A DNA stretch of 63,912 bases, filler included, from Collodictyon triciliatum (Eukaryota): the NCBI GenBank assembly GCA_043381765.1. It is 6 parts of 6 records of this genome, joined end to end, with 100 filler letters (N's around TTAATTAATTAA, not from the genome) between each part and the next. Parts side by side here need not be neighbours in the genome. Positions count along the whole stretch, not along the records: positions 1 to 16,403 come from JBHJMP010001554.1; 5 more parts are not named here. One strand, given 5' to 3'. A model generated the notes under the pieces. It was not told the origin of the DNA, did no database searches, and saw only the letters and a list, made by a program, of their open reading frames with translations. Shown one piece after another: positions 6,201-50,793 of this stretch. Each line of letters opens with the position of its first letter. Position 1 is the stretch's first letter. The position numbers were made by a program, and so were the translations under genes.

Positions 6201-9200
6201 TATCTGGTAAGCATCTACCAAACAAATGCCTCATTGAGCGAGCAAATAAGTGATAGGTATGTGATCATAATATATCAATCATTTCAAAAATGTACAATTA
6301 GCTTTGTTTTTGTGACATAGAAATGTATACCAAATAAAATTTGTAATGATAAACACATTTCACTAAATTGTTGGGGAAAAAATCGTTGATACAGAAACTC
6401 TCTCCCTCACAAGAATTTATCGAGAAAAACAACAAAAGGTCTGAATCGCAATTCATATTTTTTTCCTTTTATATCTAGAATCAAACCAGTCGGCCTTGTC
6501 GTTTGTAATTGATTTTGATTTCATTTAGTTTGTGACATAATTGAGTTGAATGCCTTATTGCACGAGCGTATCTATCCATTTGATTCATCTTTACTGGCAC
6601 GGGTTAAATGGCATAAATGTAGTGTTATCCTCATAATATTGTGACATACAATTGTGTTTGTTCCATAAATTTCACATACAATTGATATAGTGAAAAATCT
6701 TGATATACCCCTTGGAAAAATAAAAAGACAGGGGTTGCAGGGAGTTCATATATGGCATATAATTAATCATAATAATCACAGCGAAAGCTTTTACGTACAT
6801 CAAGGACTACGCAAATGCTCAAAAAATACTTGAAGATGCTTTATCCATTAGCTGTGACCCTCTAACAAGAGTATGTCGCCACCTTCTTAGTTTCTTGTCA
6901 AATTAATTTGTTTTTTGTTTTTTTGGTATATCATGCCTTGCTACGACCATCGTATTTTTAGACTACCTTTGTGTAGGAAAAATATCAAAATTCACAAATA
7001 TGCACAGGCTTTCTGTTCTTTCAAAATGGCGGAACTCAGTTTCTCACGGCTCTCTCTCGACGGGTTACTCGCCGATGTATGGGCTTATCGGCCTGTCAAT
7101 AAACAATTTGGAGGTAACCTCATATTGAAAAACGATAGTTTTTAAATATATATGCTATATGTGTAAAGAAAGAATATAATTATACGGTATAGTCTTAATT
7201 AAAGTATTTTTTTAAAAAAAATTACCTAAATTCAATACCCCTTGATTATACCCTTACGATGCAGTCACTAGCTCCGGGAAAAAAGGGTATCGACAAACCA
7301 GAACGCCTAAAAAACCACAAAATACGGTTATATCAGTCGAACAAGTGCGCATTCAGTTCCTAGATTCGTATGATTTGTTCTCTAAACTGAACCTTGCAAA
7401 AGTAAGACTCAATTTCATAATAATCATCGACTTAACGAAATACGATTATTGCCTTTTACATGAATACTTCCATCGCAGCACATGTTTTTATTTTCTTTTA
7501 TAATACAAACACAATCTTGTTTATCTCCTTAATTGTGTCTGGGCAGGTTGTATCGAAGCTCCTCTCTTTTGTTTCATGTACATATGGACGGCTTGATGCT
7601 GCTTCATGTTCTTATTATCAACGTAAGAGCGTTTCAAATACCATATTAGAATATCATCCTTATACAAAATACTATTGATCTATTTCGTGGAACTCAATGA
7701 ATCCTAGATATCCCGTCATAAACTGGTGTTGTATTTGTTACATATTGCAGTATCATTTAATTAGTTGAAACGAAGAACAAAAAACAAACAGTGATTGTGA
7801 TTCCCATATACAAGGGCTAATGACGACTCATCGAATCATACAACTGTCTCGTAGATATGTATCTTCTAACAGAAAATATCTAAATGAATAGAAATGTCCT
7901 TTTTCATCGGCCATGGACATTTATTGACTGAGCGTCTGTCAAGGAAAGAAGCCGATAGGGGTATTTGCACAACTGTGGTATCTCTTGATGACACTCCAGC
8001 TTCCTGTCCGAATGACATTGAGCGCACCACGTCAAAGCTGTCAAGTCTGTCCTTAGTGGATATTGGCTCCGAGACAACTCCAAGCAGGTCGCCCGTGAAG
8101 CGCGCCAAGTCTTTGAGTGCATCTGAACCAACTGGAGCGGAACTCCCACCATCACACAGGCTGACTGCATTGCAAAGTAACGAAATCAAGTCTATCATCC
8201 CGGATAATTGGACTGTTTGCGGTCTATCAATTTCTCCAGATTCAAAGGCCATGGTGGTAAGTCGTCTGACGAAGTCACGCCCAACGCTTGTTTGGACCAT
8301 CCCCTTCCCGCTCACTACAAATTCGAGCTATCAGAGCCTCATGAACGAGTTTCAAGCTCTCATGGACGAAGTAAGTACCTTTATATTTGTTTTTTTTTTG
8401 TATTTTTTTGTATTTTTTTGTATTTTTTTTGTATTTTTTGTATTTTTTGTATTTTTTGTTTTTTTATTGTTTTTTATTGTTTTATATTGTTTTATATTGT
8501 TTTATATTGTTTTATATTGTTTTATATTGTTTTATATTGTTTTTATATTGTTTTTATATTGTTTTTATATTGTTTTTATATTGTTTTTATATTGTTTTTA
8601 TATTGTTTTTATATTGTTTTTATATTGTTTTTATATTGTTTTTAATATCGGATAGATATGAAGGAGCCTTGAAATGAGCTCATTCTCATGTATAACCACA
8701 AAATTAAGAACACCTTTTTTTAAAAAAAAAAATGCATCCTATTACTTTCTATTATTGCAGCATTTGTTTTTCTTTTGTTTGCGTTTATTGTAGTTTTTCC
8801 CTTCAATTATTTTGTATTGCCGATTGTTATATGTTAAACGCTAGTTAATCCTTGGAACAGAGCAAAGAAACAATACAGAAGTCAGGGTCCTCAGACGGAG
8901 AAGAACACAGGTCGGCTTGGTGGAAGAAAAGAACTGCACAAAATGAAAAGCTCCAAAAAATATTAAATTCCATAGAAAATGATTGGTTTGGACCGTGGAA
9001 GGTGCTTTTTTTTTTTATCATTTAAATGAAAAAGAATCCCCTCAAATTGTCTGATATGGCGAATACGATTGCTCCATGAATTTAATATTTGTGTTTGGTA
9101 TATGGGATAATTATAGTCAATTATATGCTCATCGAATAAAGGGAAAAAAAATAGTCAATTTTATCCTCATCTCCATGTTTCTGTAATACTGTCCCAAATC

Positions 9201-10543
9201 ATGTGTCCCTCTGAATAGATTTTACCCCAGTGTATTGAAGAGTTTTTTTGTAGATAGAATGCATGTTTCTTAAATAGTATTACTACGCAGGGTATCTTCC
9301 TCGGAATTGAATGTTCAAGCACAACTTCAGTGGCAAGTGCATCGTCCGATTCGTGCTCCGACATCACCGAGTATATACGAGTTATTCAAGGAAGTTACCA
9401 GCATCTGAGTGAATCTCAAGTGGGAGAAGCCATCGACCAAATTACAAACGCCGGTGTCTATGACTATGCCACGGTTTCCCGAATGGTTAAGCAGGTATGC
9501 ATATAGCTCGATGATTGGTTTGGTCCTCTTTCCTTCATATGAAAAGAAAAGAAGTATGGCATTAAACATCAGCACTAACTTGCTTGATATACTTATTTAA
9601 TCCCCTTGTATATGAAGCCTACTCTTTATTCTTGAATCAATCGCAAAACAATCATCCATTTAAAGTGCGCAATATTCGGCGGTGTTAATGTATTTGTATA
9701 TATGTATAATGCACATGAATCGCAGCCACGGCCGGACATAGCGGAAGAATCAAACGCAGCCCAGCCGAAGCCACCAACCCAAAAGAGGGCTGCCACCCGG
9801 AGAACGTAATTTGATTATGACTGTTATTTATTTTATTTATTTTTTATTTACATGGAATAAAATTTATGCAACAACTTTCAGAACCAGCAAGTGAGTGGTA
9901 TATGCATGAAATAACCTAATAATCTTCGCATGATGAGCGCGCGAATGAACCACATTTTTTTCTTCTTCTTGTTTGACTGCGTGGGAATAACGTATCTGCA
10001 GAGTTTGCACCGAAACACGACCGCCGATGGAACACAACCCTGCACGAAACAGCGCAAAACATGGTGATGCATCAAAGCGCGGGCCAGTCATTCTCATCCT
10101 GGACGAGCCTCTTCACCAAATCCCGTGGGAGTCGCTCCCCATCATTTCATCGGCCATGCAGCCTGTCACCCGGCTGCCGTCCTGGGCGTTTCTCCAAACG
10201 CTCCTGCAAACGAGTGAACCCCGCTTCCAACACCCAATTCCACGCCCTCGCACAGTCGGCTATGTTTTGGATCCGGCTGGAGACTTGGTCCGGACGAGGC
10301 AGACGTTCCAACCGATCTTTGAGAGGTGCGATATCATATTCCTATTTACTCTCTTGTATTACACTTTTCTTACGTTGTTGGCCGTGGTTTAAATCGCGGT
10401 CCTATGTGTAATCCGCCCTGCTTGCAGTCAAAAAGAGTGGCGTGGGTTTGTCGGCCACACTCCAAAGTCTGAAGAGTGTCGCAACCTCCTCGAGACATGT
10501 GATGCATACATGTGGGTTTTCTTTCCTTTTGCTTCTTTTCATA

Positions 10544-10638
<95 letters not shown>

Positions 10639-11574
10639 NNNNNNNNNNNNNNNNNNNNNNNNNNNNNNNNNNNNNNNNNNNNNNNNNNNNNNNNNNNNNN
10701 NNNNNNNNNNNNNNNNNNNNNNNNNNNNNNNNNNNNNNNNNNNNNNNNNNNNNNNNNNNNNNNNNNNNNNNNNNNNNNNNNNNNNNNNNNNNNNNNNNNN
10801 NNNNNNNNNNNNNNNNNNNNNNNNNNNNNNNNNNNNNNNNNNNNNNNNNNNNNNNNNNNNNNNNNNNNNNNNNNNNNNNNNNNNNNNNNNNNNNNNNNNN
10901 NNNNNNNNNNNNNNNNNNNNNNNNNNNNNNNNNNNNNNNNNNNNNNNNNNNNNNNNNNNNNNNNNNNNNNNNNNNNNNNNNNNNNNNNNNNNNNNNNNNN
11001 NNNNNNNNNNNNNNNNNNNNNNNNNNNNNNNNNNNNNNNNNNNNNNNNNNNNNNNNNNNNNNNNNNNNNNNNNNNNNNNNNNNNNNNNNNNNNNNNNNNN
11101 NNNNNNNNNNNNNNNNNNNNNNNNNNNNNNNNNNNNNNNNGGTTTTTTGGTTTTTTGGTTTTTTGGTTTTTTGGTTTTTTGGTTTTTTGGTTTTTTGGTT
11201 TTTTGGTTTTTTGGTTTTTTGGTTTTTTGGTTTTTTGGTTTTTGTTTTACAAGTCTGCACCAACACAATTAGGCAAAAAGAAAGAAAAAGAACAAAGAAT
11301 GAACCCTAGCCAGTAATTATTCTATCACACACAAACCAGCCCCGCTGTGATTGCAAACCTGTGGGACGTGACGGACCGCGACATCGACCGCTTCGGCAAG
11401 CACCTGATCGAAAGCCAATTCATGCCGGAGAGCAGCAGCATTAGGAACAGCAACGCTGGTGTCCGCGCCGACTTGGCTGCGGCTGTGCAGAGCGCCCGAC
11501 AAGAGTGCCGCATGCGCTTCATTATCGGCGCCGCCCCCGTCTATTACGGCCTGCCACTCAAGTGGGCAGACTGA
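283..11574 (+). CDS. ESP1: Separase (peptidase C50), multi-exon; 5' end lies outside the window and the catalytic His/Cys exon(s) fall in the N gap at 10639-11140
   Basis: Spliced exons give the separase motifs SAWWKKRTAQNEKLQKILNSIENDWFGPWK|GIFLG (8881-9001), PVILILDEPLHQIPWESLP...PVTRLPS...GYVLDPAGDLVRTRQTF (10027-10325) and PAVIANLWDVTDRDIDRF...ARQECRMRFIIGAAPVYYGLP* (11340-11574). Upstream GT-AG exons encode the long helical N-terminus. Confidence 0.95.
8388..8645. repeat. (TTTTATATTG)-type tandem repeat in a separase intron
   Basis: 9-11 nt T-rich units starting shortly after the donor at 8371. Confidence 0.95.
10544..11243. repeat. (TTA)n and (GGTTTTTT)n repeats flanking an N gap inside separase
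   Basis: Direct reading. Confidence 0.9.
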
Positions 11575-11931
11575 GTGCCTTCTCACGCGCCTGTAATATT
11601 CTCTGCGGAGGCAGAAGCCCCATAAACACGGCAGCCATGCAGCCAGCGCGGATTCATTTCCTGCCCTGTGGCCGCGCAGATTCATCTGTTGCCCTTACCC
11701 GGCTCCGTCGGGCTGAGGCAAAAGCGGGAGCAAAGGCAGAAGCAGGCTGGCCTTCTGATTCATCTGCCGTGTGGGCAGCGGATCGGACTGCGTCGGGTTC
11801 TGCCTGCCGAGTAGAGTAGAGTAGAGTAGAGTAGAGTGTGTGGAGGCGTTTATTGTGCAGTGGGGTGGGAAACCGCGTGGGCCGTGTGCTGCAGCAGAGT
11901 CGCTTCGACGGGCGGGCGGGCCTGGGCAGGT

Positions 11932-12438
11932 TTACTTGGTGGCGGGAGCCTTCTCGGCGGGCTTCTCGTTGGAGTTGGGCTTGCGCTTGACTCCGGGGAT
12001 GGCGTTGACGTAGCGCGAGTTGTAGACGATGCGCTTCTTTGCGCGGCCGGTTCTCTTCTTGCGCTTCTCTTGCTTGGCGACCTTGGGGGTTTGAGCGCGG
12101 ACTTTACCGGCACGGGAGAGGGAACCGTGGACTTTGCCTGGGGTGTAGCGGCGTTTGCAGTTAGGTTTTGTTTTGTTTTCTGTCGGGTGTTTCTTTTGCT
12201 TCTTATTTTCTGTTTCTTGTTTGGCCTGGCCCAGCCTCGCAGGAAGGCTTTGCGCAGGAGCTTTAGTTATGTTCTGGGCAAGGGAGAGAGGTCGGTGGAA
12301 CGAGAGCAGGCTGGCTGGGGTTCTGTTTCGAGAGTGTGTGCGTCTGTGTCTCTTGTTTGAAGTGTGTGGGGCTGTTGCTGGGAAGGGAAATGGAAAGAGA
12401 GAGAAAGAATAAAAAAAAATAAAAAGAAACTAACCCAT
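11932..12438 (-). CDS. RPS30: 40S ribosomal protein S30 (eS30), no ubiquitin-like leader; exons 12438-12435 and 12137-11932
   Basis: ATGG|gttagt...cccag|GC gives [69 protein letters not shown]. Confidence 0.97.
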
Positions 12439-13226
12439 GTTTTCTGTCTGGAGGTCTGTGGTGGTTGTCTTGGGTGAACAACTGCGGCTGTGCGGCGGAT
12501 TAGTGCGGGTGAGAGAAGGTTTGATTCATGAGGCGAAAATTTCCCTTCACAGTGGGGGATTCTTGGACACTAATATTCAAGTCCGGTGGCAAACGGAGCG
12601 CAAGGGTGGTAGAGCGATGCAGAAAGGGAGAGAAAAGAAAGTCGACAGGGAAAAAAAAATTGCTCTTCCTAATTGGGTGTGTGATTGGCATTTGAATATA
12701 CGCGATGGCATTGAATGATTTAGAAGAAGGCACTAATACAGATTGAATGCGTTTTGGTAACGCGTTGGTTTGAACCTTGTGGTTAGTTGCTATTCTGGAA
12801 TATAAATCTGGAATATAATGTAAAGCTATATTTGTGTCAGCGTTTATGAGTATCTCGCGATTTTTCTGCAATATTTGTATCACCGAAATGGATGCAGAGA
12901 AGCGCGTGCATAAATTACCAACATTTGAACCAGTCGTGTCTTCCTGTATGATTAATGGCACTCCAACATGGGTTTCTAGGAATCAACTCGGAACGGGCTT
13001 CGTTTGATAACCAGTCACTGGATTGTGGATAATTCCAATTACAAATGCTCATATTGTGAAATTGTGAAATCTTCTTCGGCCAAAGGTTCTCAATTGGAAA
13101 AATTATGACTGTTGAAATAAACTCCACATATAGGATGAATGATTTTATTAATTCTTTTAGGTTTGGCACCACCAGCTTGTCAGGCCAACAAAGGGAGAAG
13201 CCAATACAGGACTGGCTAAGGTGGTT

Positions 13227-15400
13227 TTATATGGAATCTGAATAAATGTCAAGAACTTGGCGCCTGATAGGTGGTCCTCCAGAGTAATGATCGAGAAAAA
13301 AGTCCCACACTTCCTTCACCACGCCTCGGTAATGCTTCGCTGGGGGTCATATATGTTTTTTTAAAATGAGATACCGATGGTCGGCGCATCGAGTTGGATA
13401 ATGGCATCATCATATGCAGAAACCTTTGGCGAGGTCAGGCTTTGGTTGGTTTTCTCTCTCCAACAGCAAGGAGTTGTCAATCGGACCAGGAGGAGGCAGC
13501 GTAGAGCCTTATGTGGTTAGACAGTCAGTATAACATCATCACTGTAGCGATTAAGATACCTGAAGAATCAGTCAGGGATGTATTGTAGTTTGCTATTGTA
13601 TTTCTGGATTCACGGGCAAATAGCTCTATTTGTGAAGTTTGTTTCAATGGCTAGAATTTTCTTAGTGGAATAATGCTCACCGTCCATGGCAAATGCGTTC
13701 CATTTGCGAAGCCACTGGGCATCAATTATATACCTGTGTATGATGATGCATCATTTCAGCCAAAAAAAAAAGCAAAAGCAAAAGCAAAAGCAAAAGCAAA
13801 AGCAAAAACGAGGGGAAAAGAGAGGTTGTTGCTTGTCAATAGTCATATCAAATTACCATAATTCGCCAGGTCGAAGAACTGTTCTATCAATATCCATGAT
13901 TCGCCTCCTTTCAAACCTTCTCCTAGTCTCGATGTCATGAAATTGTTGACGTGTTGGCGCCTAATTGAAGTATATATAAAAGGAAATGGTACATTTTCAT
14001 TCTTTCTGCTTACATTTTTTTATCGATGTTGTTGGGTATTTTTTCTTACATCTACCCCAGCATCGCTACTTTCTGAAGGCACACTTGTGTGAATCTTGTT
14101 CATAAATTTACGGTATTACAAAAAACATCGACAATATCCATTAATCCTATTGTTTAAAAGAACATACCAGAGGAGATACGTGGGATAGTAACTCTGTACA
14201 ATCTCGACTTGGAGATGAATTTTTCGAAGAATTTGAAGACGACGGTCTATCATTCAAGTAAGTTGAGTTCGTGTGTTGCTTATGTGAATTAAAAAAATGC
14301 AATTCTTTTTTTGTCATTGGGCAATTAGGGAGTTGGCGACCTTGAAGTTCCTTTGGGGCTGCAGCCTACAAGACAAACAGTTAACAAGATTAGAGATTAA
14401 CTTTTGAAAGTCGTATGAATTACTTACTCGACGACCCTTTCACAGAATGGGTTGAAGCTTTCGAAACTAACTCATATGAACCTACAAAGTTTGTGCTACC
14501 TTTATCTGCAGATAATGTTTCGCTCTCTATAAATCTAATGGGATGTTCTTTTAACAATATATGTGTTTGTGTATCAATGATAGGTTCAATATATACAACA
14601 GGCGAGTGTGCAATGACTTGTTGCGTATAGTAAGTATTACTTGGCTGTCTTGGAGAATGACTCGAAGGCCATCACCACCTCATCAACTATCCGATTCAAT
14701 GTGATATCTTGTCGATTTGCTTTCTATAGAGATATTCAAATACGTTGCAACATTTTTTTATAGTACAAATTCTTAAAAAGAGTCGAATGAGTTATTTGTC
14801 AGTTGCGATTATCGTCGTAATCTTACAGCGCGATAGGTATTCGACAAGTTTAATTGTATGGCCATTCTTTTTTTTCTATAGAAAAAACAAGAAAAAACAA
14901 GTGGCATATTTTGTGCTTCTTAATTTGTTTCGGATTTTTAGTGCAAAAGCAAAAGATGACAGACCGTCCGACAAATAGGGCACTCTAACTTTACTTTGAA
15001 GCACTCATTGATGCAAGTAAGACAATCTGACAAGTTATTCGCAGTTAAAAATATGAGCCAAAATCATGATAGGTAGAATCGCGGGTGATTAAATGTCGTT
15101 TTCACCATTGAATGGCACAGGAATTTCGTCTGGTGGCATTATAAAAATATATTGTAAACATAGCCATGAACTAAAATGCTAGTACAGTTATGTCCGCATT
15201 TTGGGAGAAGAACCGCATTTCTAAAGGGAGCGATGCATATAGGGCATGTCAGTCTCTGCTCCAGAAAGTCAAGTTCCTGTTCAAGCGACTGGAATGGATA
15301 CCCCATCCTGAATCAAGTTTTTTTTTTTTTCTTAGTTGCGAAGTTACTCGCCAAAACCAGGTTACTTAGTGGCAAGTTTTTGAGAAAAGAGGCAACCCAT
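13227..15400 (-). CDS. Putative N-acylated RING-finger (RAD18-like C3HC4) plus DUSP-domain protein, ~303 aa, 12 exons
   Basis: Phase-consistent GT-AG exons: 15400-15366, 15307-15186, 15026-14965, 14723-14641, 14534-14428, 14365-14341, 14246-14168, 14094-14050, 13960-13857, 13733-13681, 13507-13424, 13339-13227. Translation: MGCLFSQK...LTCPICIAPFRNAVLLPKCGHNYCLTCINECFKVKLECPICRT...LNRIVDEVV, a Ser-rich linker, then WYIIDAQWLRKW...PPPGPIDNSLLL...HYRGVVKEVWDFFLDHYSGGPPIRRQVLDIY. Confidence 0.88.
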
Positions 15401-16058
15401 GGAGTTCTGTATTGGCACCCGATGAGTTTCTGAAGCTTTATTCTTTTGATAATCTTTTTTCTCTCACAGCCCAACTGGTGTTATATCTACAATGTCCATG
15501 AACGATTTCGTGTGTTTTGTTTCTCCATCGTAGCGAAAAACCGAAGCAAAGACACACATAACCGGAAACATCACATACGGAATTCAGCTCGATATTACGA
15601 TATGTGGACCTTTGGCAAAGTTGCGCCCAAAATAAGTTTGAAAAAACAGTTTAGAGTCAAACAATTGTTTTCGGACATAGATTCGTTTATTTGGTAGATG
15701 AGAGGAAGGTGAGGGAGGCGGTTGTAAGATTTTTGTTTCGTGTCTACACAGACAGGCATGATAACGGCGTTTCAATAACAGAGAAGTGGCGAATTGGGTT
15801 TTCTTTCTTTTTTTTGCTATCATTCTGGGAGCAGAAAAGTCAATGGGGTGAGAGAAAAGCATGAACAAAATAATAGCAAAACCCCGATGTCTAGTTGGGA
15901 GTAGAAGAGTTCCAACGTATCTGGGCGGCTCATGTACTTTAGATACCAGAGCTCCTTTAATGGTGTTAAAACATATTAAGTTTCGAGGGGCTTTTCTACC
16001 AAATAGTTGTTCAGAAACGAGAATTGTTTTCTAATAGCTGAGTATTGTAGAGTTACAC

Positions 16059-16231
16059 TCACAAGTCTTTTCTCCAGAGTGTGATTTCTTGTTGCTTAAA
16101 ATAGCGACGATCTTCTTCGTCCACAAGAACAAGATTGAGATAGTATCTCACTGAGAACTTGTTATTCACCTGGCGGTAAGTAGGGGTGATATCGAAGGGG
16201 CTGAGAAACAGGCGCACAGGGATGGATTCAC
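16059..16231 (-). CDS. VPS26: Retromer subunit VPS26, final exon only (the rest is cut off by the contig linker)
   Basis: [57 protein letters not shown] matches the conserved VPS26 C-terminus. Confidence 0.95.
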
Positions 16232-16403
16232 CTTTATTTGATTGAATAAGATTTTAATGGGCACACATAGTAATTGTTACTTCATTCGTTTCTTTGCTGC
16301 TGGGGGGGGGGGGGGGGGGGGTGTTTGTTGGGTTTTTTTTTTCTTTTTTTTTTTCTTTTTTTGTTCTTTTTTTTTTTTTTTTTTTTATTGCTTTTTTTTT
16401 TTT

Positions 16404-16503
16404 NNNNNNNNNNNNNNNNNNNNNNNNNNNNNNNNNNNNNNNNNNNNTTAATTAATTAANNNNNNNNNNNNNNNNNNNNNNNNNNNNNNNNNNNNNNNNN
16501 NNN
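16404..16503. other. Artificial contig linker
   Basis: 44 N + TTAATTAATTAA (stop codons in all six frames) + 44 N; genes on both sides are truncated. Confidence 0.95.
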
Positions 16504-16682
16504 TTTTTCTCTCTCTTTTTTCTCTCTCTTTTTTCTCTCTCTTTTTTCTCTCTCTTTTTTCTCTCTCTTTTTTCTCTCTCTTTTTTCTCTCTCTTTTTTT
16601 CTCTCTCTTTTTTCTCTTTTTTCGTCGACACTGGTAACAACCTGTTCTTATCCGCACGCTTTTGACTAGGGAGAAATTGTAG

Positions 16683-19382
16683 TTGTCATCCCTGCTGACC
16701 AACCAGGAAGAGAGGAAACCGAGATGGCCAAGATACTCTCCCCTTTCAAAGTCAAAGTATCACTTTCACATATGATATTTATTAACAAAAGTGTGAAAGA
16801 AACGGCGAGACTTATACCGCACATATGGTAGGTTTTAGTCATGCGATCTGGCTTTTTAGATCACCGTGTGTTATTGGAGGTTTTCAGAGAAAATAAGCTT
16901 TTGCAATTCTATCATTCGAGTCGGAGAACAACGTTCAGCCTTTTGTTGAGAGGCTTCAACCAAGTGATGAAGGTTTGCTGCTATATGAAAACGAGAAATT
17001 AGTGATGCATTATCAAACGTTTTTTCGGACAAAGCCGCATGCAACCTTTCTATTCCCTTCTAGGACGAATATGAGTCCGAGGGAATCAAAATCTCTTTGA
17101 GACAACTTCACGACCAGGGCGGTCTTTTGGTATATGAGGCTCTGGAGGATGTTTTGATCGACGAGCCCCTCTATTGCCACAGCTGGAGTTATAGCAAAAT
17201 CTTTTTCATGCGAAGTGTGTTCAAGTCGCTATGGCTCTCTCGAATGTACATTGTAGAATCTTCAAAGTTCATGACAAATTACCAGGTTTACATCCACACC
17301 CTTCGTACACAGAAACCAAGCACACGCATGGGATAGTAATTGCTGTATGGTCATGTGTGTTTGCTATTCTCCAGCTCGCTAGAATCTTGCGCCGACTGCA
17401 AGCTTATAATAGAGTACAAAAGGAATCGGACCAGGGGTCCGAAGATATCACCATAGAGAGGTTGAGCAGTCATCTGGAGGTCAGCACAATTCACCCATAT
17501 TCACCGAACCAAACCATCTTTGAATTTGTTTTGAAGAAAAAAAATCAAGAAGTAAATGAGACAACAATAATTTTGTTTCCTTAGATGCTGAAGCAGCACA
17601 AATCGAAGGAATGGATTGATGCGCAACTTGTGGAAACTTTAGTCGAGGAATTAAAATCCAAAGATGAAAGCAAAGCTACCCTTATCTCAAGAAGCGACCT
17701 CGTCCGAGAAATTCAAATGTAAACAAACAGTCACATTATATGTTTTTTTTTCTTCCTTCATGACAATCCAATCAATAGCTCATTATGTAAACGTGATCTT
17801 GTCTTCTTTTTCTCAAAAACAAAACAACATATACATTCCTACAACAGAGACCACGCCTTGAAGCATCCAGACAGACTTTCCATTTACTCCACCAGCGATC
17901 TGGAGAAGGAAGTGAAATACATATTCGACAAGCTTCCATCAACTTGCCTGAATAACGTCACACGAGTATGTGATACCTTCGAACCGTGCGCACAAAGAAG
18001 AAAATGAAAAATCAATCTATTTTCTTGATTAATCGCACAGTCCAATCGCGCGCTTCGAATATTTTAGTTTTGTTTTGTTTTGTTTTGTTTTAGTATGAAC
18101 TGATTGCATCGTATCGGCCGAGACCGATGTCTTTGGGAGGAATCTCGTATAAGATAGTGGAAATCATGGATAATTATCAGGATCGACTCGGAGAATACAT
18201 CCATGATGTTTGGGCGTATGACAAACTGCGAAACGGATGGGCGTAAGCTCGATTGCATACTCTCTCTTCCCTATCTCTATCTCTCCCTCTCTGTGCTCTG
18301 ATTCTTTTTCTCTGTGCATATTTTTTTTTTATTAACAAAGTCCATCACCAATCAACGGAAACATTTGTTTTACAAAAAAAAAAAAAAACGGAAAAGCTAT
18401 GCGCCAAAACGAGACAACGAGAAAAGGCTCCACCACCAACTGGTTGCTTACGACGAGTTGACAGAGTCAGAGAAGAGCTACGACCGCAACATCGCCCGCA
18501 AGGTGCATTCACACAACGGCGCTCGCAATTCAATGCAATACAAAGAGAAAAAAAAGCATTGTTTGCTCCACATGACACAGACATATTATGAATTCCTCAT
18601 CTTTCTCCTAACATGGCTTATTTGCCTACGCCTCAAAGGTCATCGGGCTGATTTTGCAATGGGGATATACAATCCACCCGCCTGCTGAAAAGGGCTTTCT
18701 CACCGCTCCGAAACTCAACCTCGCGCAATACGAGGTAATTTCGTCTTCATTATTTCGCTTTTTGAATCAGAGCCCACATCTTCATCGGAATAATACGCTA
18801 ATGATACACCAGCGAGTAATTTTCCCAAAAGTCCGGCTTGGATAACTCAAAGAAAGAATGATTTTTTTTTTAAAAAAAAAAAAAGAAAAAAAAAAAGAGG
18901 ACTATACCTAGATGTGTTTTCTAATATTCTGGGTTGTGTGGTTCCACAGGCCAAAATAAAGAGTGGATATAAGATAAATCTACCACACTTTAAAGACAAC
19001 ACGCACATGACCGAGTTTGAGCCTTTGATGGAAGTTCTCGCAGAAAGTATTCATGACGAATGGGCAAAGGTGAGCACGCAGACAAGAAATCATGGATAGA
19101 TAAAGAATATGATTTTCAATAAGTGCATCTGGTTCTATTCATTCCCCCAAGCAAACAACACCACCAAAACACAAACATCGTCACCAGGGTCGAATGGAAG
19201 AAGGATTCCGGTATGGACACGTCAAGGAAAAGAAAGAACTGACTGAGCTCACTCCGTATCAATTTCTCAAGCCGGAGGTGAAGGAGTCGAACCGAAACTC
19301 TGTAAAAGGTGTGATTGAGTACCTCTTGTGGACGGGACATGCAATCGCGAGCGCAGAGAAAAAGACTCGCGTCTGCTTCTGA
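16683..19382 (+). CDS. Protein ending in two tandem RyR (ryanodine receptor Repeat12-type) domains; probably 5'-truncated
   Basis: Spliced: YRPRPMSL...RLGEYIHDVWAYDKLRNGWA|YAPKRDNEKRLHHQLVAYDELTESEKSYDRNIARK|VIGLILQWGYTI and LMEVLAESIHDEWAK|GRMEEGFRYGHVKE...LTPYQFLKPEVKESNRNSVKGVIEYLLWTGHAI. The N-terminal exons are less certain. Confidence 0.85.
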
Positions 19383-19614
19383 ATCAGCAAGACATTTTTT
19401 TTTTGAATTTCCGAAACATCCATAAATTAAAGATGAATTTGAATAGACAGGTAGTGATCGGACACAACAGGCGCTCAGGTATTCAAATAAGTCCAATCTT
19501 TGCGTGGCTTGAATGTCTGGATATTATAAGAAACGCCGAAGGTTTTTATTACACCGGTGAATGCTTTCCCTAAATATCTGTTTCGCTTGCATGCTTCGAA
19601 ATGATATGCCGCAA

Positions 19615-21207
19615 CTAGCGGATGAATCGCTCGACATTGGCGCTCTTTGCATCAAAAAATTCCTTTGCAAGTTCCTGTGTCTTTGAAGAGTTGGAATCTT
19701 TCTTCATTTCCTCAGCGACACGTTGCGCAATCTGGCGAAAGGCAAATGGAAGTCACAAGGAGTAATAATGATAACAATATATAATTCTATCATGATCGCC
19801 AGTGTGGTGGCGAGAAGGACGAGTGTTTACTTCATTTTCATTAACACAGAAAAAGTAAACATCAAAAATGCATCTCTCCTCGGCATGAGAAACTGTGCTA
19901 ACCTGACACTTTTCGACAAACGAGTCGAGCTTCCGGGAATATTTTTCAGCAAGATGGGGTTTGTTCGAGTGGTTGTGAGCTGATTTAAATAAAATAGTTT
20001 CTTTTAAAATAATAACAGTAATACATCCCGTAACCAATCGTCTCTGATGGTTTCCTAATTATAGCCCTGTCTTCCTTCTTCTTTTTCCCTCTCTTTCATT
20101 TCGATTGCTTTATATATATGTATTCATATCCAGTATTATTCTGTTTCTCACCTTTCATATGAAGTGCGACGAATTTGATAGCAGACTCTACAATTCCTTT
20201 TCCAGGATATATGGGACGTTTTTCTCCCAGCTCCGTTAGCGACTCGATGAGTGAATGTGCGATGGTTTGTTCAAAGTATCCCAACGTCGGAAGCTCGAAT
20301 AGATTGATTCTAAAGAGAACATGGTTTTGAGAGAAAGAAGTATTGATTAAAAGAACATTAAAGACAACAGTAGGAGGCATTTCACGCTTCTTTAAAAAAA
20401 CATCGTATTAATTTAACAACTGGCTTCCACAAGGTAGAAAGCGAAAGGATTCCTGCTTACTCAATTTTTTTTGGAGGCAGTTTCTTTGGTAGTTTGGCGC
20501 CTGCGTATTTCCACGGAGACTTCATAAACATGTCCAACGAACGCTCGTCCACTAGACTGAATATGCGATTCGCATAGGCAACCAAACATGCTTTGTTTCC
20601 CTCCACAAGTCCATTGTACGCGGCTGAATTGAGAATCGATTGTGTGCTGAAAGTGACTGGACAGTATCCTTTGAAGCCCAACTCGGCTGTGTCGACTTCA
20701 GCAACTTCCTCTGGACTTATTCTTTGTGGTAGATTAGGAGGAAGCGTGTATTTCGTATATGCATTAGGATGTATGACAAAGGCAGCCACTTCATTCGACG
20801 ATGCACACTTGTAATAGGTATCCTAAAATTCATCCAACTCATCAGAGCGTGCGAAAGCTGTGCGCGCATAAGACTAGAATCATACAAGTATATGAATTCA
20901 TCACAGACTCTTTTGGGAGAGTATATACATTTAACTCTAATGACGCACTACCTTGTACTCCACGATGTGCTCCAGTTCGTTGGGGCATTTGATGAGCTCG
21001 CCTCTGGAAACATAGCTTACTGGGCAGTATTCGCCAAAAGGAGAGAGCTTTTGATTGACCTCCTCCAAACTCAGACCAGTATCATAGACGCAGGCCGGGC
21101 GACCTTGTGGGAAGGAATTGATATAAAAATATGGAACATGTAATTCTCGGTTATTTGTTGTTTTGTCTAGAAAAAATAAGAAAGGATATACGTAAATTTA
21201 AGCTTGA

Positions 21208-43000: not shown

Positions 43001-45017
43001 ATGCGAGCCCTTCTCCAAGGTGAGCTGTCTTTCTTAGTTCTCTTTAACTTAAAGCAAAAAAAAAAAAAAAAAACTGGGACAAAACTGTAACTTTGTGTTT
43101 TATTTACGCGTTTTTTTCTTTAGCTCTTTCCATCGCCAAGAGCACCAGCCTTGGCATCCGCTCCTTCAAGAGCCTGAGCCTCCCTGGAGGCTTCATTCAA
43201 CACAAATGTAAGCTAATTTGTCTTCGTCTTTATTTTGCTTACGTTTATTTTTCTCTTGTATCCTAAAGTATCAGACACGACCCTGCCATTCGGTAGAATG
43301 AGTCAATTTTTCTCGCTATTCAAAAGAATAATACCTCAGAGCAACTGAAGTCAAAGTCTAACCAACCCATATACATACTATCGAAAACATCCAGTCAGTG
43401 CTTTGGGAACTCCCTTGGCTCTGACTCAGCAGGTGCGCTTTGCCGGCAAGTACGACCGTAGCAAACCACACTTGAACATTGGAACGATCGGGCACGTGGA
43501 TCACGGCAAGACTTCGCTGACAGCAGCCATCACCAAAGTCCTCGCCGAGGCGGGACTGTCCAACTTTGTTGCGTATGATCAGATCGACAAGGTGGGTGCT
43601 TCCCACGACTCTTTTTCCTTTTTTTCCTCTTACTCTCCCTTCAACTAGCTATTCACAATATTAACCTACTCCCACAAACAACTAATCTACGTTATAGATA
43701 GGAGTGTAAACATACAAAGACACGATCATAATAATTTATTTTATTTTTTTTTTACATCTTTCAACTCTTTAATCATCTCGCACATCCACATATACGCACA
43801 AACACACACACACACACACACATTTTAGATACACTAAGAGTGCAATGCATATGTAGACCCCGTGAAATGAGCGGGTCCCTTTGCACACAAACTTCCACTA
43901 CTCGTCTTTCTGTGTCTATATCTACACCCATATATATCTGGACTCACCACACCCTCCTATCTGCCTGCACAACGGGCACCAGGCACCAGAAGAGAAGGCA
44001 CGAGGAATCACAATCTTTGCGAGCCACGTGGAGTACGAGACCAAGAACCGACACTACGCCCACATCGACTGCCCGGGACACGCGGACTACATCAAGAACA
44101 TGATTACCGGGGCCGCGCAGATGGACGGGGCGATTCTCGTGGTGTCAGCAACGGACGGGGCGATGCCGCAGACGCGAGAGCATCTGCTGCTGGCCAAGCA
44201 TGTCGGGGTGCCTGCGCTGGTGGTGTTCCTCAACAAGGCAGACGTGGTGGACGACGCGGAGATGCTGTCGCTGGTGGAGATGGAGATCCGCGAGCTGCTG
44301 AGCACATACGGCTTTGACGGCGACAACACGCCGGTAGTGGCAGGGTCCGCGCTCAAGGCGCTGGAGGGCGACAGCAGCGCCATCGGACAGCCTGCGGTGC
44401 TGCGCCTGATGGAGGCCGTGGACGCGTTCATCCCGCAGCCGCAGCGCCAGGTCGACATGCCCTTCCTGATGCCCATCGAGGACGTCTTCTCTATCTCGGG
44501 GCGCGGCACAGTGTGCACCGGCAGTGTGGAGCGTGGCGTCATCAAGGTTGGGGACGAGGTTGAGATCCTGGGCTACGGGGCCACCAACAAGTCCACCTGC
44601 ACGGGGATTGAGATGTTCCACAAGATTCTGGACCGCGGCGAGGCCGGCGACAACGCTGGCATCCTGCTGCGCGGGGTGAAGCGCACAGACGCCCGCCGCG
44701 GACAGGTGATTGCCAAGGCCGGCGCATATGCTGCACACCGCCGCTTCCAGGCCGACGTCTACATCCTGAGCAAGGACGAAGGCGGCCGCCACACGCCCTT
44801 TGCAAACAACTACCGGCCGCAGTTCTACTTCCGCACGGCAGATGTCACGGGGTCCATGGCCCTGCCCGAGGGCGTCGACGTCATCCAGCCGGGCACCAAC
44901 ATCAAGCTCACCGTCGATCTGCTCCACGCCGTGTGCATGCACGAGGGCCTGCGCTTTGCCATCCGCGAGGGCGGCCGCACCGTGGGCCACGGCGTCGTCT
45001 CAAAGATCCTCCCGTAG
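43001..45017 (+). CDS. TUFM: Nucleus-encoded mitochondrial elongation factor Tu; exons 43001-43019, 43124-43207, 43395-43591, 43983-45017
   Basis: Presequence-like [24 protein letters not shown]..., then [43 protein letters not shown] and [11 protein letters not shown]. Confidence 0.97.
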
Positions 45018-45100
45018 GGGCCCGCACGTCGGGGAAGGGGAGGACGCCCGGATTAAAGAGCCGCCGATTGCGCTGACGGTCGGTTCCGCGTCCGGCACGG

Positions 45101-46153
45101 TTACTGTTTATGGGGGTCTTCGCAGGGCAAGGGCAAGGGTGGGAGGGCAAGCAGGTGGCAGGCGGTCTCGTAGCCCCAGCGGGCCAGATAGGGGTCGCAG
45201 GCGGCCGGGGAGGGGTCTTCCTGGACGCAGTTTGCGTAGTGGGCGCCCTGGCGCAGGTGCGGGTGTGGGGCCAGCAGGCAGAAGAGGATGGAGGCGGAGC
45301 CGGCGTCCACGGAGCGGCGGAAGGGGGCGCCCAGGACGTGTGCGAGCGTGCGGAGGGGCGGCGGGATGTTGCGGCCGATGGCGGTGGAGACGTAGCCCGG
45401 GTGCAGCGAGACAAAGAGGACGCCCGCGGCGGGCAGCCTGCGCGCCAGTTCCCGGGCCGTCCAGATGTTGGCCAGCTTGGAGGAGTAGTAGGGCCGCTGC
45501 AGGGCAAAGGGCGCGTCCGTCTGCGCCGCAAAGAGCCGCGCCTGGTGCAGCGCCGCGTGCGACGCGAGGGGCCCCGCGGCGGGCGCGTAGTCCGGGCGTG
45601 CAAGCGTGGCGCGGTGGTGCAGGCGCGACGAGACAAAGACCACGCGCGAGGGCGCCGAGGCGCGCAGGCGCGGCAGCAGCAGATGCACAAGCAGCACGTG
45701 GCCCAGGTGGTTGGCCGCCATCTGCGCCTCGAAGCCCTCCGCCGTCTCCCGCCGCGTGGGCAGCCCAAACACCCCCGCGTTGCACACCAGCGCGTGCAGC
45801 GGGCCGCGCATCCCGACCAGCGCCGCCGCACACGCCCGCACAGACGCCATGTCCTCCAGGTCGCACGCCACCGTCTGCAGCTGCCCCCGCGCCGCCCTCT
45901 GCCCCGCCCCTGCCCCTGCCTCTGCCTCTGCCTCTGCCTCCAGTGCGGCCGCGGCTGTCGCCATCTTCCCCACGTCCCGCACCAGCGCGATCACCTGCGC
46001 CCCGCTGGCAAGCAGATGCCGCGTCGTCTCCAGTCCCAGTCCGCTGCTGGCCCCCGTCACCGCAACAACCTGGCCGGGTCCGTACTGTCCGTACAGCCTG
46101 CAGATCTGCGTGCCGCTTGTGTGCCCTCCTGCCTGGCTCGCTGCGTGTCCCAT
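45101..46153 (-). CDS. Short-chain dehydrogenase/reductase, RDH11-14/WWOX-like, intronless, 350 aa
   Basis: TGASSGLG, CNAG, FEAQMAANHLGH, VFVSS, YYSSK (YxxxK) and SLHPGYV motifs. Confidence 0.92.
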   Translation of the reverse strand: MGHAASQAGGHTSGTQICRLYGQYGPGQVVAVTGASSGLGLETTRHLLASGAQVIALVRDVGKMATAAAALEAEAEAEAGAGAGQRAARGQLQTVACDLEDMASVRACAAALVGMRGPLHALVCNAGVFGLPTRRETAEGFEAQMAANHLGHVLLVHLLLPRLRASAPSRVVFVSSRLHHRATLARPDYAPAAGPLASHAALHQARLFAAQTDAPFALQRPYYSSKLANIWTARELARRLPAAGVLFVSLHPGYVSTAIGRNIPPPLRTLAHVLGAPFRRSVDAGSASILFCLLAPHPHLRQGAHYANCVQEDPSPAACDPYLARWGYETACHLLALPPLPLPCEDPHKQ

Positions 46154-46164
46154 GCTTCGGTGCT

Positions 46165-46341
46165 TTGTTTGTTTGTTTGTTTGTTTGTTTGTTTGTTTGT
46201 TTGTTTGTTTGTTTGTTTGTTTGTTNNNNTGTTTGTTTGTTTGTTTGTTTGTTTGTTTGTTNNNNNNNNNNNNNNNNNNNNNTTTTGTTTGTTTGTTTGT
46301 TTGTTTGTTTGTTTGTTTGTTTGTTTGTTTGTTTGTTTGTT
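46165..46341. repeat. (GTTT)n repeat between the SDR and membrane-protein genes
   Basis: Direct reading, with short N runs. Confidence 0.95.
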
Positions 46342-46430
46342 CTCGCTTCGTTTTTCTTTTTGTTCTCGTTTCGGTTTTTGGTTTTGTTTTTGTTTTTCTT
46401 TTTGTTCTCGTTTCGGGTTTGGTTTTGGCT

Positions 46431-48428
46431 TCATCGTGTTTGTTTGTGGTTTCGGTGTGGCGCGATTCCTTGGTCGGCTTTCTGCTTGGCTTCAGGCGCT
46501 GTATTGTTCTCCACAGTGGTGTTTTCGGTTATGAAAAGAATTCGATTGCGATTTCTTTGGTAGCTCCAGACGAACCGGACAAGAAAGATGGCCAGTGAAA
46601 AGTTCGATGATGCGAATGTTACCTTGGATGACACCAGGTTCACCCCGCCGATTGAGATGGATTTGTCCTGGTGGAACGTGCGGCCGATGCTTAATTTGCA
46701 CAGAAGAGCCTCTGCCATCGCCCACGCAATCCCGATTGTGGCGACGTAGGTCAGGTTTCTGTGTCCAATACTCATACTGTCCGTCGCTAAGCACCAGTAC
46801 ACACTGATAAAGTAGTATCCTCTGAAAAGCATCCGAGTGTCCCAATCGCATAAAGTCCCAGAGGAAATACCTACTTTCGTTAATGTGTAGATGACGAACC
46901 AAAAATCGAAAGACTGAACCATGTATCGAACCATTATAAGGTTGCATGTGGTCAACACTTTGAAAACAATAAATACTATGGCTAAACTGGTTATTATTCC
47001 TGCGATGGTTTGGAAAGTATCACCAAGACAAAAACCAACCCCCAAGAGAAATGAGAATATTACTGACAATACCGAAATAAAGTACCCTCCCATATTGAAC
47101 CATTTAGACCAAAGAATTAGTGGTATGCATTGATTTTTGTCGACAATGTATTTATGGAATACTGTCTGATGTAAGTCATAAAGAATCTCTTTTTCCTCTT
47201 GCACTCCCATGGTGAGAAACAACATTGAATCGCTATTTCCTGACCTTCCTGTTTCCCCATTCAAAGCTTCTCTATCAATACTACCCTGAATGCTCATCTC
47301 TATCCCATTTTTCATGACCAGTCTCCCAATGCTCTCTGGAACCACAGATGTTAGCTCTATACCGCTATTGGATTTCTTCTCCAAACCATTATCAACATTA
47401 GTCGAGGATGGGCTAGCTCCCAAATGATCTACTGCTCCGTCTTGAACCCTTCGAACAATAATTTTCCTTGTCAATCCAATATCCCTATGGGATTCATTTC
47501 CGTAATTGTCATGGAATCCTTCACTATCGATTTCATAAAAATTTGAAAGGAATGTGATTGTGGAAGTTTTCTTGCATATGATGCATGTGTACATTATACG
47601 GAACAAATAAATCATCACCGTAGATAAATTGTCAATAGCCAAGAGTCGAACATCAACAATCTCAATACTTGTATCAGGAAAATATATCTTTTCATACTCA
47701 AATTTACCAGCTTGAATGAATAGCAAGACTATGATTGGTGTATACGACAATAATCCTATGAAGACAAAAAATTGAAGCTGTCTGTTCCTTTTCGCAGAAT
47801 GTGCATCAAAGGAAATGAGTAAAAGCATACTGGTCAATGAGTGTATCATTGCAAAAATGTTCACTATGCTTAATTTCAGTAAAGTAAGGACACAAAACTG
47901 AAATGAAATCCCATTCACCAGTGTATACCAAAAATCAAACGACTGAAGGAGCTCTTTGACAATCCCCACACGAACAAAAGTAGAGTGATGCAAAATCATC
48001 ATCAAGGTACAAAATATTTGAATCGGGATATAAATGTACCCTGGAATGAAGCTCGGTTTGTAGCACAAAGACAAAACATGAAAAGTGCACAAAAACCAAG
48101 AGATGATAAATACGTTTACCAGTATCTGATTTCTCAAGATGCGCACCATGAAACGCAACATCGTCTTATTTCTTACCATTTCTGAAAGAAATGTCCTCCT
48201 CTTTTCGATTTTGAATGTCCTTTTTCGAAGTTTTAACTTAATCACCGATGTGAGACTCTGTCTTTTCATGTCCTCAACACTTTCTCCATTCGGAATATTG
48301 ATTGCCTCAGTTCCAATCGCCACGCTATTGTCTTGGTGCCGGGAGTTTCGATCAGCCCACGCTTGATTTTTGGTCTCCGGCATTTGGTCACTTTCTTCAA
48401 CTTCCACTTTGAGTGAAGCAACCTTCAT
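46431..48428 (-). CDS. Uncharacterised polytopic membrane protein with two homologous TM halves (665-aa uninterrupted exon; possible upstream exon 48866-48755)
   Basis: Long open frame with two hydrophobic blocks, each containing QSFDFW. An upstream ...NIF G|gtaagg joins in frame at cattag|AA ATG. Confidence 0.85.
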   Translation of the reverse strand: MKVASLKVEVEESDQMPETKNQAWADRNSRHQDNSVAIGTEAINIPNGESVEDMKRQSLTSVIKLKLRKRTFKIEKRRTFLSEMVRNKTMLRFMVRILRNQILVNVFIISWFLCTFHVLSLCYKPSFIPGYIYIPIQIFCTLMMILHHSTFVRVGIVKELLQSFDFWYTLVNGISFQFCVLTLLKLSIVNIFAMIHSLTSMLLLISFDAHSAKRNRQLQFFVFIGLLSYTPIIVLLFIQAGKFEYEKIYFPDTSIEIVDVRLLAIDNLSTVMIYLFRIMYTCIICKKTSTITFLSNFYEIDSEGFHDNYGNESHRDIGLTRKIIVRRVQDGAVDHLGASPSSTNVDNGLEKKSNSGIELTSVVPESIGRLVMKNGIEMSIQGSIDREALNGETGRSGNSDSMLFLTMGVQEEKEILYDLHQTVFHKYIVDKNQCIPLILWSKWFNMGGYFISVLSVIFSFLLGVGFCLGDTFQTIAGIITSLAIVFIVFKVLTTCNLIMVRYMVQSFDFWFVIYTLTKVGISSGTLCDWDTRMLFRGYYFISVYWCLATDSMSIGHRNLTYVATIGIAWAMAEALLCKLSIGRTFHQDKSISIGGVNLVSSKVTFASSNFSLAIFLVRFVWSYQRNRNRILFITENTTVENNTAPEAKQKADQGIAPHRNHKQTR

Positions 48429-48477
48429 TTCTAATGTTGGGCTTGTTACTTATTAGTGGAGTGTAAATAGCAGGCAA

Positions 48478-49324: not shown

Positions 49325-49424
49325 NNNNNNNNNNNNNNNNNNNNNNNNNNNNNNNNNNNNNNNNNNNNTTAATTAATTAANNNNNNNNNNNNNNNNNNNN
49401 NNNNNNNNNNNNNNNNNNNNNNNN
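49325..49424. other. Artificial contig linker
   Basis: N44-TTAATTAATTAA-N44. Confidence 0.95.
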
Positions 49425-49607
49425 AGTAAAGTAAAGTAAAGTAAAGTAAAGTAAAGTAAAGTAAAGTAAAGTAAAGTAAAGTAAAGTAAAGTAAAGTAAA
49501 GTAAAGTAAAGTAAAGTAAAGTAAAGCAAAGCAAAGTAAAATAAGATAAAAGTATAATAAGATAGAAGTAAAAGTAAGATAAAAGTAAAAGTAAAAGTAA
49601 GGCCAAC

Positions 49608-49858
49608 CATTGAGCGGCAGAGGCAAAGTCCTGGATCGAATAATACGAGTATCCCAGCAGCGAAAGCGCCGCGCGGCTCTTTGGGAATTCGAGCAGCTCC
49701 TGCGACAAAAGACGGATCACCTCCGTGAACTTGCCGTCGCGGATGTAAGTGTAGATTGTGGCGGTGTATTGGCCTTCGGGGATGCGACGCATCGCTGCGG
49801 CTCCACCTGCTCCGGGTGCGGCTGTGGCGGGAACCATCTGGTAAGATGTGCGCTGCAT
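49608..49858 (-). CDS. TTC30: Intraflagellar transport protein IFT70/TTC30/Fleer, exon 1 (truncated by the linker)
   Basis: RIPEGQYTATIYTYIRDGKFTEVIRLLSQEL...PKSRAALSLLGYSYYSIQDFASAA matches the TTC30 N-terminus. Confidence 0.93.
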
Positions 49859-50793
49859 GGCCGACTCTGTGGATGCGCGCTCGTTGGTTGTGTGTCTCTT
49901 TTCGTGAACACAGGTGAAAGAACAGGGACGATCGGGCCTTTTCTTTGTTGGTTCTCTCTTCTTTTCTTTTTTTTTTTTTTTGATCTTTTTTTTGATCGTT
50001 CTCTAGCGCTGGGGCAGGTAATGTTTTGTGGGAGAAGAGGGCGTTAGTTGGGTCTTCCTGAGAATTAAATGGCTACAATGAAGTGAAGAGGTCATTATTA
50101 TTATTATTTTATTTTTATTTTTATTTTTTTTTATTTTTTTTTTACTATTATTATTATGTTGGGCGCAGTGTTGTATTGCTTTGTTGTGCTTGGCTTGCGG
50201 AAGCAGACAATCGGCTTGATTCAAATCGTGATGTTTTGTTTTGTGATTTTGATTTTCGAAAAGTAACGACTTCCACAATTATATTCCTATTTATGGAATT
50301 TATCATAATATCACAAATAACACTATCAAATAAATTTCATATGATGTTATAGTGGCATAATTTATGAATAATTGTACATATAATAATATAAAATAAATCA
50401 AATTGCTCACCACACAAACCAAACACCCCCGTAACTGGAATTTATACCAACTGGATTTTGTGTCTCTTGCGATTCTTTCCTGCAATCACCCAAAAAACCG
50501 AACCTTTCCTCCAGCGAGAACCGCATCCACTGGAAAACCCGGGCTTCCAAGCGAGTCACTAACCAAAACACTCAAGTCTTGCAGCATTAATTCTTTGATA
50601 TTTTCTGGACGTCCAAGCGAGAGTCACTCTGCGGAAGGGAATGGCGGATCGGGTTCGTTTTGTCGCTTTCTTTCTCCCACAATGGATGCACACCCACCTT
50701 TGTTACAGTACTTGTTGCGCGATGGTCTATTCAATATCAAGCAAAACTGTGAGCTTCTTTGAGCCCACGAGACTAACATTGTGGAAATCAACC

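Follow-up and report, generated by a model that had tools for sequence, protein, structure and literature searches.

We analysed a 63,912-nucleotide (nt) stretch of DNA from Collodictyon triciliatum (assembly GCA_043381765.1; six parts of six records joined with filler letters, hereafter the window), and found on its first record, JBHJMP010001554.1, a minus-strand locus at 15400–13227 whose two ends code for two ubiquitin-system domains, a C3HC4 RING finger and a DUSP domain. On balance, our assessment leans slightly towards a single RING–DUSP gene on the minus strand, with ~11 exons and a product of ~300–330 residues. The surrounding DNA is AT-rich (29–44% GC in most of the window) and contains many microsatellites, N gaps and short introns.

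Both gene ends reported in a first-pass annotation of this DNA could be read directly from a three-frame translation of the reverse complement, namely an ATG at 15400, which opens the sequence MGCLFS, and a TAA stop codon at 13229–13227. The 12 exons and ~303 amino acids (aa) of that annotation were not reproduced. Instead, two complete models spanning both halves were obtained, each composed of 11 exons with GT–AG introns throughout. Model A comprises 999 nt and 332 aa, its introns (10 of 10 GT..AG) being 58–241 nt in length, and model B, which skips the stretch around position 14290, encodes 296 aa. Domain logic or homology backs six of the ten modelled introns; intron 1, the linker exons and the RING–DUSP fusion are putative. 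The proposal is thus confirmed in part, at its two domain-coding ends. The features of the locus are as follows.

Exon 1, 15366..15400, minus strand: 11 2/3 codons from the ATG onwards, followed by the GT donor 15365-15364; the phase-2 end fits exon 2
Exon 2, 15186..15307, minus strand: helix and first half of the RING (CPIC ... CGHN)
Exon 3, 14965..15026, minus strand: second half of the RING (CLTC ... CPICR)
Exon 4, 14641..14723, minus strand: post-RING segment containing LNRIVDEVV, in phase 0 after exon 3
Linker region, 13961..14640, minus strand: candidate exons only, differing between models A and B
Linker exons of model A, 14534-14428, 14358-14168 and 14094-14050, minus strand: a GT–AG path
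Linker exons of model B, 14534-14424, 14246-14168 and 14094-14050, minus strand: a GT–AG path
Exon 8, 13857..13960, minus strand: conserved Arg/Glu-rich helix ahead of the DUSP domain
Exon 9, 13681..13733, minus strand: start of the DUSP domain (YIIDAQWL...)
Exon 10, 13424..13507, minus strand: middle of the DUSP domain (PGPIDN)
Exon 11, 13227..13339, minus strand: end of the DUSP domain (HYRGV ... SGGPPIRR) and the TAA stop
AATAAA hexamer, 13144..13149, minus strand: likely polyadenylation signal, 77 nt beyond the stop codon
Antisense spliced transcript, 13579..14899, plus strand: RNA contigs of the sequencing run X1, described below

The C-terminal DUSP domain, already recognised in the first-pass annotation, is well supported by homology. 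Pfam scans were run on unspliced single exons (exons 2–6, 8, 10 and 11; exon 7, with 15 aa, falls below the 20-residue minimum), and exon 11 alone matched the DUSP family PF06337 at E 3.7e-5 (profile positions 49–76 of 77), while exon 10 matched it at E 0.036 (positions 25–44 of 77). With exon 11 as the query, 1.84 billion representative proteins were searched exhaustively; 79 of them matched at E <= 1e-3, and a DUSP domain was present in all but one of these relatives (78/79). A further search with a DUSP alignment as a profile, capped at 8000 candidates, gave at least four proteins. When exons 8–11 are spliced, the model is colinear with DUSP proteins from residue 219–227 to its end, without gaps at three exon junctions; for instance, it aligns with P0013 at E 1.2e-34, sharing 50% of 107 residues, and with P0003 and P0010 at E 1.4e-33 and 2.4e-32, respectively. 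Consistent with these alignments, a tblastn search of the 79 relatives against positions 10000–20000 of the window placed 90 high-scoring segment pairs on exon 11, 66 on exon 10, 40 on exon 9 and 5 on the 3' part of exon 8. A profile that included the window exons also matched DUSP domains of known structure, those of USP11, USP4 and USP15 (E 4e-13 to 5e-10); the profile was needed for this, as exon 11 alone found no DUSP match among solved structures. The motifs PGPIxN and HYRGV and a GGGP-like motif are kept at the locus. As the alignments, the tblastn search and the profile all support the spliced DUSP exons, we regard introns 8, 9 and 10 as validated by homology.

The absence of a USP catalytic domain, which had been noted earlier, was corroborated by the same tblastn search. 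Although 27 of the 79 query proteins bear the UCH domain, nothing better than E 0.007 was detected beyond the DUSP exons at 10000–20000, which argues that no USP catalytic exon lies nearby. The C-terminal DUSP part of nine DUSP proteins matched the plus strand at 17285–17395 in tblastn at E 0.1–0.4, and we dismissed this candidate as a probable chance match. The DUSP half appears to be incomplete on its own, because the homology to DUSP proteins starts 10–18 residues upstream of the only in-frame Met of exon 8 (residue 237) and an in-frame TAG is located at the exon 8 acceptor. Thus, the DUSP half needs an upstream coding exon.

At the other end of the locus, joining exons 2 and 3 in phase 1 yields a full C3HC4 motif, C-x2-C-x12-C-x-H-x2-C-x2-C-x10-C-x2-C, in which all eight zinc ligands of the RING are present in the expected order and spacing, as the first reading of the sequence had it. 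The Pfam scores of this domain stay under the gathering cut-offs, because each exon carries half of it: exon 2 matched zf-RING_UBOX at E 5.5e-4 and zf-C3HC4 at E 0.0088, and the best match of exon 3 was zf-RING_2 at E 0.037 (profile positions 26–44 of 44). The cut-off of zf-RING_2 is 27.3 bits; the two exon halves reached 15.4 and 14.7 bits, so that only their rough sum exceeds it. The N-terminal half of the RING was compared with solved structures, and TRAF6 was the best match (E 2.5e-4), followed by TRIM25 and TRIM21; RAD18 (2y43) ranked 15th among the listed chains (E 0.012), with BIRC7 and MIB1 also ahead of it. Exon 4, which contains the LNRIVDEVV segment, matched neither a Pfam family nor a solved structure. 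The likeness to RAD18 that had been proposed is accordingly generic, and the RING is best described, from its sequence, as a member of the broad TRAF/TRIM/RAD18 class and not as a relative of RAD18. Neither UBZ nor SAP was matched in the exons scanned with Pfam, in agreement with the initial description.

The putative N-terminus is encoded by exon 1, whose ATG is the first after an in-frame stop located 20 codons upstream. The predicted protein would begin with Met-Gly and bear Cys at position 3 and a small residue at position 6. Starts of the MGCxxS type are the myristoylation and palmitoylation pattern of Src-family kinases and G-alpha subunits. The acylation motif claimed for this locus is therefore canonical-looking and directly readable, but it lies on a predicted first exon of 35 nt. 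The acylation reading depends on the splicing of intron 1, which is 58 nt in length: if this intron is not spliced, the ATG at 15400 opens a reading frame of 12 codons only, and the RING protein would start at the next ATG, at 15306.

Public sequencing runs provided RNA data for the locus and for its upstream neighbour, VPS26. Run X1, which derives from a close relative or strain (95–100% alike), supplied six short contigs, five of which lie over the locus, confined to 13579–14899, and the sixth on VPS26. Run X2 gave nothing at the locus, and run X3 covered only VPS26; we took the runs to be RNA because the VPS26 transcript in X3 carries a poly(A) tail at 15668. Three joints occur in the X1 contigs (13989–14160, 14258–14328 and 14489–14583), and each of them is bordered by GT..AG on the plus strand, indicating that they are introns of an antisense transcript. 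This transcript overlaps the minus-strand exons 4 to 9, and one contig retains the intron 14258–14328. Its spliced open reading frames (ORFs) are small (~75 and ~65 aa), and for this reason we consider it probably a non-coding natural antisense RNA. A loose 8-letter end of one X1 contig at 13868 found no placement nearby. The first-pass annotation had suggested RNA reads as a check on its exon junctions; the RNA seen at the locus is antisense only, with zero minus-strand joints.

Several results weigh against a single gene, beginning with this lack of minus-strand junctions in the X1 contigs, which also leave RING exons 1–3 and DUSP exons 10–11 uncovered. Between the two halves, the stretch that opens with exon 4 and closes at the exon 8 acceptor can be crossed by 1,655,303 open GT–AG paths (introns of 40–320 nt with GT..AG; stop-free exons of at least 9 nt), so that phase-matched splicing is expected by chance and provides no evidence for the linker. 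Exons 4, 5, 6 and 8 matched no Pfam family, and exons 5 and 6 and the early part of exon 8 are without a homologue. One X1 contig (depth 5.2) carries a 2-base insertion at 14290, within exon 6 of model A. When exon 2 was searched against 5.8 billion proteins, no match was found in proteins longer than 70 aa (four candidates, none of them scored), and hence no orthologue confirms the architecture. Among the 79 DUSP relatives, none has an N-terminal RING, and the three with a RING fusion show the reverse order and another RING subtype. Finally, starts with Met-Gly are not enriched among those relatives whose sequences begin with Met (7/65).

These results also bear on two points of the earlier description of the linker. 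The matching phases across the linker exons are no evidence given the number of chance-type paths, and the Ser-rich linker found no backing, since no family, homologue or RNA contig supports any linker exon that was scanned. Codon-usage scoring of the linker exons, trained on 1343 codons from the window, was abandoned: known exons scored only 0.01–0.24 bits per codon, and some wrong frames did at least as well.

The RNA data bear on the possibility that the RING exons, the DUSP exons or both are relics of one or more decaying genes, and that the locus is expressed mainly as an antisense non-coding transcript. The antisense transcript is indeed the only RNA seen at the locus, with the end exons of both halves lying outside its cover, and a polymorphism at 13944 in the X1 contigs (the codon being read by hand) alters an amino acid in exon 8. 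Nevertheless, the ten modelled junctions are all GT..AG and the reading frames are free of stops, and neither the zinc ligands of the RING nor the signature residues of the DUSP domain have been lost. Furthermore, cover gaps in one small run say nothing about expression. We consider a decaying locus very improbable.

The uncertain linker bears on another explanation, in which two adjacent minus-strand genes, one for a RING-only protein (~100 aa) and the other for a stand-alone DUSP protein (~135 aa), have been misjoined. In that case, the RING gene would stop at the TAA that follows the unspliced exon 4, and the DUSP gene would start at an ATG in 14317–14103. The end of exon 4 (AA|GTAATA) fits this proposal, as an unspliced reading meets TAA at once. 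For the DUSP gene, five ATGs within 400 nt offer 12 ways of joining a first exon with its own ATG to exon 8 (e.g., the ATG at 14103 with the GTAAGA donor at 14049). Many of the relatives have DUSP as their sole Pfam domain (e.g., P0013, P0081 and P0035), the linker region is without homology, and the insertion at 14290 is compatible with non-coding sequence. On the other hand, neither AATAAA nor ATTAAA occurs on the minus strand between the putative RING-only stop and 13149, and a 3' untranslated region (UTR), a promoter and a 5' UTR would have to fit into ~535 nt. Two genes would also require that two ubiquitin-system domains found fused elsewhere became adjacent here by coincidence. We hold two misjoined genes to be possible, albeit doubtful.

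The single RING–DUSP gene is mildly favoured on three grounds. Firstly, exon 8 needs an upstream coding exon, as described above. Secondly, no AATAAA separates the halves: the minus strand from 15400 to 13227 contains none, although the 63.9-kb window has 181 copies on its two strands together and ~3 were therefore to be expected (P ~0.05). The hexamer 77 nt beyond the stop codon and the AATAAA ahead of the observed poly(A) end of the neighbouring VPS26 point the same way. Thirdly, RING+DUSP fusions in other organisms make chance adjacency less likely. The RING and DUSP coding exons share the same strand and are ~680 nt apart. The first-pass proposal that both domains belong to one gene is therefore upheld as far as the shared strand and the coding nature of both halves are concerned, but no mRNA joining them has been seen. 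P0013, the best full-length DUSP relative, starts with MGNSSCC, a weak hint that members of this DUSP subgroup act at membranes; at this locus, an anchor could come only from the upstream MGC exon.

If the locus is genuinely a single gene, its product would open with a Met-Gly-Cys acylation signal, after which come a C3HC4 RING between helices and a Ser-rich linker predicted to be disordered; the DUSP domain, with the helix ahead of it, would form the C-terminus. The protein would be attached to a membrane through myristoylation of Gly2 and palmitoylation of Cys3, and the RING would recruit E2~ubiquitin. The DUSP domain, which is closest to the C-terminal DUSP of USP20/33-type deubiquitinases, would then select a substrate or partner as a protein-binding module. 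The coding exons of the RING and of the DUSP domain, with the splice junctions inside each, are shown, whereas we infer that the two are fused, that the product is acylated and acts as a ligase, and that its DUSP domain serves as an adaptor. The DUSP-Ubl unit of USP4 reportedly promotes ubiquitin exchange. Taken together with the description of DUSP-UBL as a non-catalytic interaction unit in USP4, USP11 and USP15 in PMC6333900, this makes an adaptor role plausible. It is tempting to speculate, and we do so tentatively, that a dually acylated membrane RING ligase captured the terminal DUSP of a USP20/33-like enzyme for targeting, and that DUSP, which protists have also joined independently to another RING, to proteases of the OTU and PPPDE kinds and to a GNAT acetyltransferase, would be a general and portable adaptor of the ubiquitin system and not an accessory of USP enzymes. 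The DUSP domain may bind a shared ligand, for example ubiquitin or a partner loaded with it.

The locus lies between two other coding regions. Upstream, VPS26 occupies 15668–16253 on the minus strand; its last exon matched Pfam Vps26 at E 4e-18, and its 3' UTR is ~390 nt. The poly(A) end of its mRNA at 15668 (run X3) is positioned 23 nt past an AATAAA at 15691 and 268 nt from the RING ATG. The best matches of this VPS26 are a Diphylleia protein (91% identical), followed by those of Rhodelphis, Goniomonas and cryptophytes; conservation of the domain is too strong for a taxonomic placement. Downstream of the locus, the plus strand carries a C-terminal exon of a separase-like peptidase at 11317–11571 (Peptidase_C50, E 8e-6, just under the cut-off).

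Elsewhere in the window, a GC-rich island extends from 43866 to 46528, with 69% GC in 44001–46000 as compared with 27–44% elsewhere, and has microsatellites and N gaps on its flanks. It contains an EF-Tu ORF without the N-terminal G1 region (43866–45014, plus strand; GTP_EFTU, E 1.5e-47), and an ORF for a short-chain dehydrogenase lies on the opposite strand (45104–46120, minus; adh_short, E 1.4e-26). The island could reflect chimeric scaffolding, a piece of a contaminant or symbiont genome, or a transfer of DNA. An ORF at 49376–50002 on the minus strand showed a weak match to TPR_16 (E 8e-4, below the cut-off), and by eye we take it to resemble the N-terminus of the intraflagellar-transport protein IFT70/TTC30, a hint at a flagellated organism. 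An uninterrupted ORF of 672 aa at 46434–48449 on the minus strand appeared hydrophobic by eye and had no Pfam match. No Rfam match was found in the window.

Pfam scans of the 79 relatives of exon 11 gave an overview of the proteins in which DUSP domains reside. Besides DUSP and UCH, with the counts given above, zf-UBP was found in 8/79 relatives, a zf-C3HC4_3 RING in 3/79, OTU in 3/79, PPPDE in 1/79 and GNAT in 1/79. DUSP is fused to OTU, PPPDE or GNAT in the relatives P0058, P0061, P0071, P0054, P0080, P0046 and P0043, and many of these proteins are rich in Ala, Arg and Ser, as in GC-rich protist transcriptomes. DUSP seems to be a widely shuffled module in protists. If the single RING–DUSP gene is real, ligases and deubiquitinases would share a targeting module, and such a ligase, along with the fusions of DUSP to RING, OTU, PPPDE and GNAT, would offer simple systems in which to ask what DUSP recognises. 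The literature we searched treats DUSP as a non-catalytic part of USP enzymes with poorly defined ligands. The value of the present case is limited, as the gene model is putative and such domain shuffling is common in the ubiquitin systems of protists.

Among known systems, RAD18 shares a C3HC4 RING with the locus and presumably has a similar spacing from the last Cys pair to an L-N-R-I-hydrophobic-D-E motif, but neither UBZ, SAP nor a RAD6-binding region was recognised in the scanned exons (2–6, 8, 10 and 11). USP11, USP4 and USP15 differ from the locus in having their DUSP domain at the N-terminus, ahead of a UBL and the protease; the locus showed no UBL. The closest DUSP sequences are those of USP20/USP33-type enzymes such as P0010 of Gloeochaete wittrockiana, in which an Arg/Glu-rich helix likewise precedes the last DUSP. 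P0010 is a complete enzyme that combines zf-UBP and UCH with a C-terminal pair of DUSP domains, a layout that we take to be that of USP20/33. The locus, by contrast, has a single DUSP domain and carries a RING where these enzymes carry the protease, and no UCH or zf-UBP exon occurs at 10000–20000 of the window. P0013, a EukProt transcript of 178 aa, combines the best full-length DUSP match with a Gly/Cys-rich start that is a likely acylation signal, but it lacks a RING, and its linker is short.

The architecture of a RING and a DUSP domain without a USP domain had appeared unfamiliar in the first description of the locus. No single protein with both domains is described in the titles and opening parts of abstracts that we searched, where the hits concern USP enzymes and separate ligases. 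The combination is nevertheless already present in databases, in three of the 79 relatives and in the reverse order. P0001, P0073 and P0075 with their cluster members, uncharacterised proteins derived from protist transcripts (MMETSP, Logan and JGI), possess one or more DUSP domains followed by a C-terminal zf-C3HC4_3 RING and no USP domain, and their DUSP parts align to the locus at E 4e-21 to 7e-20. In the Protein Atlas, P0073 had a best score of 0.87 with RING-only clusters, which we regard as a lead only. These three proteins carry the DUSP domain at the N-terminus and the RING at the extreme C-terminus, and lack the MGC start, whereas the RING of the locus is N-terminal and nearest to TRAF6, TRIM proteins and RAD18. 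The fusions in P0001, P0073 and P0075 and the putative one at the locus are probably independent. Their existence means that the combination of RING and DUSP without USP is functional somewhere, and the N-terminal RING with a C-terminal DUSP in C. triciliatum, if encoded by a single gene, would arrange in a new way two domains whose pairing is rare but already exists.

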